64,000 nt of DNA from Eledone cirrhosa (Eukaryota), in the NCBI GenBank assembly GCA_964016885.1, contig OZ024753.1:44020001-44084000 (forward strand), given 5' to 3'. Shown here piece after piece: positions 6,540 to 58,030 of the stretch. The notes under the pieces are model-generated. The model saw only the letters and a program-made list of their open reading frames with translations, was not told the origin of the DNA and searched no databases. Each line of letters begins with the position of its first letter. Position 1 is the stretch's first letter. A program made the position numbers and the translations under genes.

Positions 6540-6680
6540 TAAGGGTGAAAGCAGTGATTCTTTGCTTAAACTTTAATCTGTTATTTTAATAAATATTTGC
6601 TCTAGGATTCTTATATATTTGATATATATATTATCCTTATCGAACCTTCTTCGGATTTTAGTCTTGACACTTATTATTAT
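6540..6680 (+). mobile_element. Family Q Penelope-like element, 5'-truncated within HHR stem II
   Basis: AAGGGTGAAAGCAGTGATTCTTTGCTTAAACT plus tail, homologous to 39655-39872 and 57581-58030. Confidence 0.7.
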
Positions 6681-6699
6681 TACTATATATATATATATA

Positions 6700-6905
6700 T
6701 TTAATATAGAAAAGCTTCTACAGGTCTAGAACTGTTTCATTCGTGAGAAATCATCAGGAAGCTGATTGTCCAGCTTCCTGCTGCTTTCTCACGAATAAAA
6801 CAGTTCTAGTCCTGTAGAAACTTTTCTATATTAAATATTTATACTCTGCTTTGTATTGAGTACCTTACTTACTGTGGTTAACCCCCTTCAACCCGGGATA
6901 AACTT
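6700..6905 (+). mobile_element. Family R fold-back Penelope-like element
   Basis: Inverted repeat of ~65 bp (6700-6764 vs 6771-6836) plus a ~70-bp tail, flanked by (TA)n. A rearranged relative lies at 19638-19740. Confidence 0.75.
6713..6763 (-). ncRNA. Type I hammerhead ribozyme, full stem III
   Basis: Minus strand reads AGCTTC-CTGATGA-tTTC tcac GAAt-GAAA-CAG ttctagac CTG-TA-GAAGCT: 6-bp stem I, GUA cleavage triplet. Confidence 0.85.
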
Positions 6906-37671: not shown

Positions 37672-37864
37672 ACGAAGGAAATGTGGTAAGGAACCAGGTG
37701 GACCATAACGCACCAAAGTACTCAATACTTAGGGTAGTAGAGTGGGTAATAGGAACAAGTAAGACCCCGACAGCTGAGCTCAAGCCGTTTCGACGGCTAA
37801 TTCTGTGACAGAATTAGCCGTCGAAACGGCTTGAGCTCAGCCGTCGGGGTCTTACTGGTTCCTA
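37672..37864 (-). mobile_element. Family P fold-back element
   Basis: Near-perfect palindrome 37749-37865. Each arm carries GAAA-CGGCT tgagctc AGCYG-TC-GGGGTC; the tail is on the left. Confidence 0.8.
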
Positions 37865-38785: not shown

Positions 38786-39134
38786 ATAGTTATACTTGGG
38801 GAGGGTCATATTGTTGTAATAATATTGCCAGAAATGATATATATATTTATTAAAATAACAGATTAAAGTTTGAGCAAAGAATTGTTGCTCTCACCCTTAA
38901 CGGGATTATTACTATTATTATTATTATTATATATATGTGCGTATATATATATATATATATTTATATATGTATGTATATATATATAACCAAATGTTAAACA
39001 AGGTTCATTTTTTATCTTCATCTTTGTATCTTTTTCCCTTTTCTCTTCTAATTAGCATTCTCTCTCTCTTTTGGGTTTTTCTCTATCACGGATATTTACA
39101 TATTTAAATATTTAACATTTATATACTTATGTGT

Positions 39135-39544: not shown

Positions 39545-39602
39545 CTTTATGCTCTGATGAGTCCCACTTATAGTGCGGATGAAACAATGTTAGCAAGTAA
39601 AG
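39545..39602 (+). ncRNA. Type I hammerhead, minimal stem III
   Basis: CTTTA TGCT-CTGATGA-GTCC CAC ttata GTG c GGAT-GAAA-CAATG-TT-AGCA ag TAAAG; predicted cut after 39591. Confidence 0.8.
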
Positions 39603-39654
39603 ATATGCATATGCTATAGGCGTTCTTTGTTATTTATTATATATATATATAGTA

Positions 39655-39863
39655 ATAATAATAAAATTGAAGACTAAAATCCAAAGAGGGCTCGATAAGG
39701 AAAATATATATCAAATATATAAGAACCGAAGAGCAAATATTTATTAAAATAACAGATTAAAGTTTAAGCAAAGAATCGCTGCTTTCACCCTTAATGCGTT
39801 TCAGAAGATCCTGTTAAGGGTGAAAGCAGCGATTCTTTGCTTAAACTTTAATCTGTTATTTTA

Positions 39864-39872
<9 letters not shown>
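39655..39872 (-). mobile_element. Family Q fold-back element; inverted arm carries the CAGAAGA hammerhead (+ strand 39798-39846)
   Basis: GTTT-CAGAAGA-tCCT gttaa GGGt-GAAA-GCA gcgattctt TGC-TT-AAAC. A further fragment lies at 38846-38907. Confidence 0.75.
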
Positions 39873-56500: not shown

Positions 56501-57580
56501 TTTGCATTATCATGGCTATTGGCTGATAAGATTTTCTTTTATTCTTACAAAGAAGCTAACTTTTCATTCAGAAAGGAAAAAATAAAAATAAAAAATAGAA
56601 AAATAAAAGATGAAAAAAAAACAACTAAATTTCAATAGTCAGAAATGAAACAAAAGAAAAATCCAGTGTTTTTTTTTCTATTTTTTCCTGAAATTCATTG
56701 GATTCACATCTGATGTTGAAAGTATGTGTGTGGTTGAGAGGTTGTGATGTTTTAATTAATATGAGGCTTTGGGGAAAAGAAACTTTCAATCAATTACCAC
56801 TTTTGTTTTTAAACACTAAACACTGACAGAAATGATTCAATAGCAATTGTGAATAACAGAAATTTTTAGATTTTTAATATAAAAAAAAATAACAACAAAA
56901 ATCTCTTTTTATACAAAAGGACACTTCATCCTCTACTCATGTTTATCTTGTAGAATAAGTTAATTCAGAATAATGTATTTAAAAAAAAAATAACTATTTT
57001 GTTTTAAGGCTTAGAAACAATATGTTGATTACATGAATATTTTGTTGCTGAATGAAGAAGGAGCAAAAATATATTGACAAAGGTACATTTTTAATTTCTT
57101 AAGCTTTTCAAATATAATATCTAGTTAATTTTTTTTCTTTCTATAACTGTGAAATATCAAATTTTACAAGTTAAAGGAATCAAGGTTATGACTCTCGCCT
57201 TTAATTCATTCAACAAAAGCCTTAACTTTCCTCAAATCACTCCCTCCGGTTGTTATTTTAACACAAGACATCACAAACATTGAAACAATTTTAATAGCTT
57301 TATTTTGTGTTATTAGTGAGTATATACGGGTAGTGGATTGGTAGTATCGCTAGAGTATTGGACAACATGCTTTGTGACATATTGTTACGTCTCTTTAGTC
57401 CTTTAACATTTACATTACTCTTTATATACTATTATATTTTTCATGGTAAAAGCTTTATCTCACATAATCATCTCACATAATATTGAAGCTATGACATTTT
57501 GATATTGTTCATTCTGAGAACAATACCTTAACGTCATGTTTTCATTGCTCTATTCACACATATATATATATTTATTTAGT

Positions 57581-58030
57581 AATAATAATAAAATTGAAGG
57601 CTAAAATCCAAAGAGGGCTCGATAAGGAAAATATATATCAAATATATAAGAACCATAGAGCAAATATTTATTAAAATAACAGATTAAAGTTTAAGCAAAG
57701 AATCGCTGCTTTCACCCTTAACGGGATCTTCTGAAACTAACAAAGTCAATCTGTAAACGCAGAACTGGATATTTCAAAAAACGTTGCAACCGGAGGAAGA
57801 CAGGAAGACGATACTTTGGTTCGTGGAAACGTTCGCTGGCAAAGACTATTCGTTTTTTCCCGTTCTTTGCCAGCGAACGTTACCACGAACCAAAGTATCG
57901 TCTTCCTGTCTTCCTCCGGTTGCAACGTTTTTTGAAATATCCAGTTCTGCGTTTACAGATTGACTTTGTTAGTTTCAGGTGAAAGCAGCGATTCTTTGCT
58001 TAAACTTTAATCTGTTATTTTAATAAATAT
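57581..58030 (-). mobile_element. Family Q fold-back element, young; CAGAAGA hammerhead at 57688-57738 (-)
   Basis: Near-perfect inverted arms of ~180 bp (57664-57845 / 57864-58030). HHR reads AGTTT-CAGAAGA-tCCC gttaa GGGt-GAAA-GCA..TGC-TT-AAACT. The right arm lacks stem II. Confidence 0.85.

Follow-up and report, generated by a model that had tools for sequence, protein, structure and literature searches.

A hammerhead-like motif with adenosine fixed at core position 4 in a Penelope-like retrotransposon family of Eledone cirrhosa

The window considered here is a stretch of 64,000 nucleotides from Eledone cirrhosa (assembly GCA_964016885.1, contig OZ024753.1, positions 44,020,001 to 44,084,000 of the forward strand). 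It contains several ends of one repeat family, called family Q. Two of these ends carry a CAGAAGA core in the layout of a type I hammerhead, at 57733-57727 on the minus strand and at 39802-39808 on the plus strand, as a first, sequence-only reading had reported for both core-bearing copies. The minus strand from 57738 to 57688 reads AGTTT CAGAAGA T CCC GTTAA GGG T GAAA GCAG CGATTCT TTGCT T AAACT. In the Hertel numbering used throughout, U4 belongs to the conserved CUGA U-turn, and position 4 is here an A. The features needed below are the following, in coordinates of the window.

57679..57754, minus strand: extended type I hammerhead motif (sequence and folding), comprising the next ten entries
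57754-57746, minus strand: outer stem I strand
57745-57739, minus strand: stem I bulge
57738-57734, minus strand: inner stem I
57733-57727, minus strand: core C3-A9
57726, minus strand: U10.1
57725-57715, minus strand: stem II
57714-57711, minus strand: U11.1-G12-A13-A14
57710-57694, minus strand: stem III
57693, minus strand: U17
57692-57679, minus strand: stem I 3' strands
57732, minus strand: core position 4, A where the canonical base is U (sequence; fixed genome-wide)
57692..57693, minus strand: predicted cut between 57693 and 57692, after CUU (C16.2, U16.1, U17), from sequence
57664..57846, minus strand: sense arm, the 3' part of the pseudo-LTR, stopping at a fixed end 29 nt past the predicted cut (98% to the full element L073)
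57576..57663, minus strand: 88-nt tail, the start of the element 5' UTR, running to a second fixed end at +117 and followed by (TA)n
57847..58030, plus strand: inverted arm, a second pseudo-LTR end without tail and without 15 nt of core and stem II
39638..39871, plus strand: second fold-back insertion (window sequence)
39638-39794, minus strand: inverted arm of the second fold-back, with tail
39798-39871, plus strand: sense arm of the second fold-back, CAGAAGA at 39802-39808, stem I truncated
6540..6700, plus strand: truncated family-Q end without 5' core, with tail
38843..38906, minus strand: truncated, more decayed family-Q end without 5' core
6700..6765 (approximate bounds), minus strand: end of a sister Hydra family with a canonical CTGATGAT core starting at 6757, used as internal control

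In the 57.7-kb copy, stem I (AGTTT/AAACT), the U10.1-U11.1 apposition, stem II (CCC/GGG), GAAA, stem III and the CUU site are all present, the latter as described before, with a predicted cut. Stem III reaches 5 bp with A15.1-U16.1 and a G-U pair, and folding predicts 9 further base pairs of stem I past a 7-nt bulge (pair probabilities 0.76-1.0). The stems had been called intact, which holds for this copy and not for the one at 39.8 kb, where the sequence is cut off inside stem I (CGTTT) and stem II has CCT. Family Q possesses C3, G5, A6, G8, A9, G12, A13, A14 and A15.1-U16.1, and its N17 is one of the bases covered by H. Both U4 of the CUGA turn and the purine-pyrimidine 10.1-11.1 pair are absent, 10.1-11.1 being U-U.

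The 57.7-kb locus is a fold-back made of an inverted arm, a sense arm, the 88-nt tail and (TA)n, and is thus a truncated two-armed insertion of a family-Q end. The arms had been considered near-perfect; they do differ at one base only, but the inverted arm lacks the 15 nt of core and stem II. Over 211 nt, the sense arm is identical (100%) at four other loci among the matches listed. When the whole fold-back is folded, the arms are predicted to pair at -299 kcal/mol with the motif buried; if transcribed through, the window copy would pair arm to arm and is unlikely to adopt the ribozyme fold. Rfam gave no hammerhead among the 150 matches listed out of 204 in the window, and none for the full family-Q element or for the sister with its canonical core. 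Because the latter is likewise unmatched, Rfam is blind to the hammerhead architecture of both families. At 39554-39610 on the plus strand, separated by 90 nt from the family-Q insertion at 39.7 kb, is a third hammerhead-like motif, which has canonical CTGATGA, a longer stem II and GAAAC. A palindromic repeat, GC-rich and near-perfect, spans about 100 nt at 37758-37856 and recurs elsewhere in the genome (L031:5820-5920); it too adjoins (TA)n.

The identity of position 4 was investigated across the 3.0-Gb genome with a pattern leaving this base open. It gave 18,681 exact matches, against 0 for the reversed control pattern, and the motif is therefore not a product of chance. The sequence-only reading would have been contradicted by a majority of CTGAAGA copies; A occupies the position in 18,491 of the 18,681 matches (99.0%). 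At 30 loci picked by their ORF alone, all 45 cores likewise have A4. The variant was therefore carried by the propagating master, as had been proposed, and the option of a natural core variant of a genuine hammerhead homologue is borne out by its fixation genome-wide. The 190 non-A cases, among the 100 listed, comprise about 40 G, 34 T and 26 C (hand count), a split as in random decay. Older copies were also collected with a flank-only pattern (58 matches, 30 read): A4 was found in 29 of the 29 that reach the core, and N7 was A in 16 rows, T in 12, G in one and a gap in one. Older sublineages with other loop II and loop III sequences and with A or U at N7 (138 matches) mostly read CAGA. A4 thus predates the young burst and is present in old and young sublineages alike, a finding that goes beyond the earlier reading.

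Three further leads were followed. Within family Q, 912 matches of CTGAWGATCCC-N3-7-GGGTGAAA looked like a canonical ancestor, a reading that was rejected; most of the 30 loci read proved to be fold-back junctions, in which the reversed arm stops at the complement of TCAG and jumps into AGATCCC, producing a false CTGAAGA without stem I. Among these 30, L102 and L109 look like point revertants to CTGA. Other CAGA families were suggested by 4,567 matches versus 1,030 in the control; in a survey that read 17 loci from the first 100 matches listed, none of the 14 recurring TTC-stem loci showed a CAGA master, and these 14 are loci of the canonical sister, in many cases junctions or truncated copies; further CAGA families may exist beyond the loci read. 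As for a spread to other species, contigs of seven runs labelled as other organisms showed no change at position 4, several being low-depth and near-identical so that carry-over is possible, and the raw reads of an eighth such run gave one partial read; these data carry no weight in what follows.

The earlier reading had not identified family Q, which is an autonomous retrotransposon. The publications drawn on here and below include Craig et al. (2021, PMC8557442), Frangieh (2024, PMC11167929), Perreault et al. (2011, PMC3088659), Cervera and de la Pena (2014, PMC4209133), Roberts (2023) and Myers et al. (2024). The unit of about 3.26 kb consists of a pseudo-LTR, a 709-aa ORF with reverse transcriptase and GIY-YIG domains, a 3' UTR and a second pseudo-LTR. 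Indeed, L033 and L073 both show motif, ORF, 3' UTR and motif, the two motifs lying 3,259 nt apart, and the ORF starts 158 nt after the predicted cut. This single ORF, seen as open frames of 713 codons, encodes the reverse transcriptase followed by a C-terminal GIY-YIG, which rules out membership of the Naiads. The protein displays RWR at 41 (a conservative variant of RWK), DKT at 119, YRDD at 350, the CxCx5C linker CNCRNRADC at 568, a GIY-YIG-like IVY..YIG at 587, CxxC as CDLC at 666 and CxH as CKH at 694. The Hydra-clade diagnostics are RWK, DKT, CxCX5C, CxxC and CxH around conserved E and N (Craig et al. 2021). The family-Q ORFs, including those in 20 stretches around motif matches, have no direct Pfam hit; the protein shares 40% identity over 704 aa with P0104, itself a match to Pfam GIY-YIG.

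A protein search of the genome listed 86 copies at 95-100% identity, many with the 713-codon frame open, and a set of 7,997 candidates yielded 515 relatives, with a top identity of 57%. No closer relative emerged from a stricter genome search with P0002, which returned family Q only. Insertions lie in (TA)n, and pseudo-LTRs, tail and inverted truncated copies are all present. Among 227 segments, 60 stop at the fixed 3' end at +29 and 93 at the one at +117 nt past the predicted cut, and such a two-end tail signature is typical of Penelope-like elements (PLEs; Craig et al. 2021; Frangieh 2024). From its protein motifs and structure, family Q is classified as an autonomous Hydra-clade PLE. Several side observations were made on these elements and their surroundings. 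The element 3' UTR holds, directly upstream of the hammerhead, a tandem duplication (about 140 nt, diverged to about 75% identity; L033:3430-3700). Ends of different PLE families or sublineages share (TA)n tracts, often back to back (window 6540-6760, L174, L112). Unrelated long non-LTR retrotransposon ORFs lie near family-Q copies at L031:1206-3749 on the minus strand (RVT_1 with zf-RVT) and at L049:2210-5002 on the plus strand (endonuclease, RVT_1, PHD finger).

The sister Hydra family (minus strand at 6757 in the window) gave 21,430 genomic matches, with T4 in 97 of 100 listed. In L259, its hammerhead precedes an ORF with RWR, DKT and YRDD whose protein is 51% identical to that of family Q. 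The two families share their layout, the U-U pair, a long stem III and a similar copy number, and the spacing from hammerhead to ATG is close (137 nt in the sister, 158 nt in family Q). The sister differs by a canonical CUGAUGA core, a GUA site and other stem sequences, different sequences thus pairing at the same three-helix places. This autonomous family (window 6700-6765 on the minus strand; L248-L267; L259:1500-3022) keeps a canonical CUGAUGAU core, and its stem I covaries between subfamilies (GATTC/GAATC, GCTTC/GAAGC). Published Hydra rows read ctga in 26 of 26 cases (Craig et al. 2021, File S2). Since both the sister and these rows keep CUGA, A4 is likely a derived state of family Q. The abundance of the sister also means that high copy number is compatible with a canonical core. 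It had been suggested that the ribozyme might be deliberately attenuated; as a canonical CUGA family is about as numerous, success does not require attenuation, and selection for it is unsupported.

Inversion junctions are concentrated at the hammerhead core, with position 4 flipped as a result: some 900 places of junction type in family Q read CTGA (L081-L110), and the mirror event in the sister yields CAGA (e.g. L171, L177). Their occurrence in both families indicates that templates are often switched at the core, with U and A exchanged at position 4. In family Q, this position lies within the quasi-palindrome TTC-N-GAA, in which an in-place switch would give exactly U4A. Fold-back junctions of both families also use the stem I complementarity as microhomology (L274, L287, L288, L306, L307, L309), so that the reversed core abuts the base immediately following the predicted cut. 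In such genomes, descriptor searches will count false canonical or false variant cores.

The constraint acting on the motif was evaluated by comparing the majority sequence of old copies with the young element. The old set comprises 28 of 46 segments, after removal of 5 as young or duplicate and of 13 without the old 3' signature; it is small and pools several sublineages, which are not independent samples. None of the 56 core and stem positions differed, whereas bulge, loops and N7 together differed at 7 of 20 positions (Fisher p 4e-5) and the flanks at 45 of 172 (p 1e-6). The core alone (0 of 12) gives p 0.04 against the flanks, and the tail, with 13 of 83 positions differing, is also fairly conserved. 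This first set had been chosen partly by a core-containing pattern, and the comparison was repeated with the flank-only pattern: the majority line over the motif was the same, differing only in bulge, loops and flank. No covariation was seen within the family-Q lineage, and because of this the conservation of the stems could also reflect recognition of the element end by a protein.

Folding predictions are less favorable. All three helices can pair with stem I open, but the predicted minimum is another fold (-15.6 kcal/mol, against -13.5 for the hammerhead). Inner stem I has a pairing probability of 0.05-0.08, the short form a z-score of 0.58, and the fold itself a probability of 0.002 with A4 and 0.003 with U4. 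The idea that A4 acts as a conformational off-switch gained no support: pairing of A4 with U11.1 is predicted as possible in the young copy (p 0.39) and not in the old L241, and the fold probability is similar with either base. Loop II ends in A, stem I is bulged, and there is a U at 1.7, predicted to be paired; an A(L4)-U1.7 contact has been described (Myers et al. 2024).

Traces of cleavage were also sought in DNA, where copying of cut RNA would be expected to leave elements that start at the cut. Family-Q ends without U17 number 582, of which 30 were read: 11 are junctions, 17 point changes and 2 other. Boundaries of 5' ends at the predicted cut represent about 0.6% of some 35,900 ends, a denominator obtained with a search pattern that included the consensus base. 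In the sister, 14 of 30 read out of 169 show such a boundary, among 13,236 ends, which is again about 0.6%. There is thus no cleavage footprint in the DNA of family Q or of its canonical sister, and the same low rate does not tell the two cores apart. It follows that neither family is copied mainly from cut RNA. This agrees with the Poseidon PLE of Anolis, whose hammerhead cut only with its protein and whose insertion in vitro did not depend on cutting (Frangieh 2024). Published core variants bear on the question from both sides. A natural U4C viroid variant keeps its infectivity and U10.1-U11.1 is the best-tolerated mismatch (Perreault et al. 2011). In a phage selection, no escape mutants at U4 were found among 50 plaques (Olsthoorn 2014), and in a deep scan all single CUGA-turn mutants of a tertiary-stabilised hammerhead had low activity (Roberts 2023).

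Several explanations compete on this evidence. The A4 motif may be catalytically dead and its three-way fold retained solely to serve the reverse transcriptase and endonuclease in recognition or positioning, beside two reverse-transcription start sites. The proximity of the motif to two fixed 3' ends (29 and 117 nt), the missing footprint, the lack of effect of catalytic mutants on the in vitro insertion of another PLE (Frangieh 2024), the low activity of CUGA mutants (Roberts 2023) and the invariance of the sequence itself, and not of pairing alone, all point in this direction. A purely structural role is nevertheless judged rather unlikely: the unpaired catalytic positions are unchanged while N7, the sole free core position, switched between sublineages (even if the core-only statistic is weak, p 0.04), N17 remained a permissive U, and the sister families have quite different stem sequences. 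A dead and unselected relic, left by a master that lost activity through U4A and hitchhiking through the burst, would also account for the missing footprint; Naiads multiply although they lack canonical hammerheads, and the possibility has been raised that hammerheads are no more than parasites of PLEs (Craig et al. 2021). This last scenario is very improbable and largely refuted by the conservation pattern, with 0 of 56 core and stem changes compared with 26% in the flanks and 35% in the loops, and with all sublineages A4.

At the other extreme, loop II and the bulged stem I might form tertiary contacts that restore a near-normal speed and make A4 a true alternative core. The extended stem I (0.76-1.0) would permit this, the A at the end of loop II together with U1.7 corresponds to the A(L4)-U1.7 contact (Myers et al. 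2024), and tertiary contacts have been proposed to offset core variants (Perreault et al. 2011). Full compensation is quite improbable all the same, as no second, compensating core change is present, U1.7 is predicted to be paired, and no rescue occurred within two mutations (Roberts 2023).

The explanation retained here lies between these extremes. The motif, situated in the pseudo-LTR of a young Hydra-clade PLE with A4 fixed in young and old sublineages, would, somewhat more probably than not, still be a slow, possibly protein-assisted self-cleaving RNA. U4 would have changed to A once in the Q lineage, a plausible route being a template switch at the TTC-N-GAA that has position 4 at its centre. 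The lost U-turn contact would lower the cleavage rate, and the long stem I, the monomer-type stem III and the predicted loop II-U1.7 contact would keep a residual activity. The slow or protein-assisted ribozyme may then trim transcripts, whether tandem or read-through, at a site 158 nt before the ORF, the loss of activity being tolerated, presumably, because uncut RNA is the template that is copied. In favor of slow cleavage, by analogy, are the infectious natural U4C, the tolerated U-U mismatch, the lack of escape mutants at U4 and the protein-dependent cutting in Poseidon. Against it stand two stacked handicaps, A4 and U-U at 10.1-11.1, the predicted minimum, which is not the hammerhead fold, and the low activity that CUGA-turn single mutants would lead one to expect (Roberts 2023). 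The 5' boundaries at the predicted cut are also rare, although the canonical sister shows the same rate. A bolder version, in which a natural CAGA-turn hammerhead achieves useful cleavage rates, either unaided or in complex with the RT-endonuclease of its element, having arisen by the element's template switching and been kept under selection through several transposition waves, appears unlikely on the sequence data. If true, the 'invariant' uridine turn could be rebuilt with a purine, and searches with a CUGANGA descriptor would miss whole retroelement families.

No natural U4A hammerhead was found in the searchable literature text; a case or rate for U4A may stand beyond that text, in figures or in Lunse (2017), Nelson and Uhlenbeck (2008) or Ambros and Flores (1998). 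No relevant match was returned by the supplements of Perreault et al. 2011 (text only), Cervera and de la Pena 2014 (file 2) and Craig et al. 2021 (first 3 places per term), and the accessible parts of PMC11014351, PMC2553840, PMC6765202 and bioRxiv 10.64898/2026.07.22.740005 contain nothing on U4A. The role of PLE hammerheads is an open question (Craig et al. 2021; Frangieh 2024). The genome of Eledone cirrhosa offers a natural pair in this respect: two related, equally abundant autonomous families, CUGA and CAGA, with both folds conserved. A comparison of cleavage within this pair, in the presence and absence of their proteins, would distinguish a need to cut from a need to fold. If active, a U4A core would broaden the consensus of natural hammerheads along with the search descriptors derived from it; a slow or dead one would be a modest addition to the known core variants.

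As judged from its sequence, family Q is a Hydra PLE whose motif is like a type I hammerhead except for U4, and its comparison with known systems makes this precise. It shares with the Hydra-clade hammerheads of Craig et al. (2021; e.g. Hydra-1_Ajap, Hydra-1_Crog, Hydra-1_Obim) a type I motif near the element 3' end, a short stem II and, as in many rows, an 8-nt core ending in U and UGAA (U10.1-U11.1), together with the protein motifs, the (TA)n targets and the tandem and inverted copies with tail. It differs by A4, the published rows having U4 (26/26 ctga), by a stem III of 5 bp with a 7-nt non-palindromic loop (3-4 bp and 1-3 nt in the published rows), by a stem I extended past the bulge, by a tail of 88 nt instead of 30-40 and by a unit of about 3.26 kb instead of <3 kb. 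With the natural core variants of Perreault et al. (2011), namely the U4C viroid, U3-A8, A6C and U10.1-U11.1, it has in common a single core deviation in an otherwise intact consensus and the U-U at the base of stem II; position 4 is here a purine and not a pyrimidine, activity is putative, and the change is fixed in about 18,500 copies across sublineages instead of being a rare variant. Finally, the minimal PLE hammerheads (Cervera and de la Pena 2014) and Anolis Poseidon (Frangieh 2024) resemble family Q by a hammerhead in the pseudo-LTR upstream of the ORF, an expected low intrinsic activity and a tail set by two start sites. Their cores are canonical or U3-A8, with little or no stem III (dimer type), whereas family Q combines a monomer-type stem III with A4.
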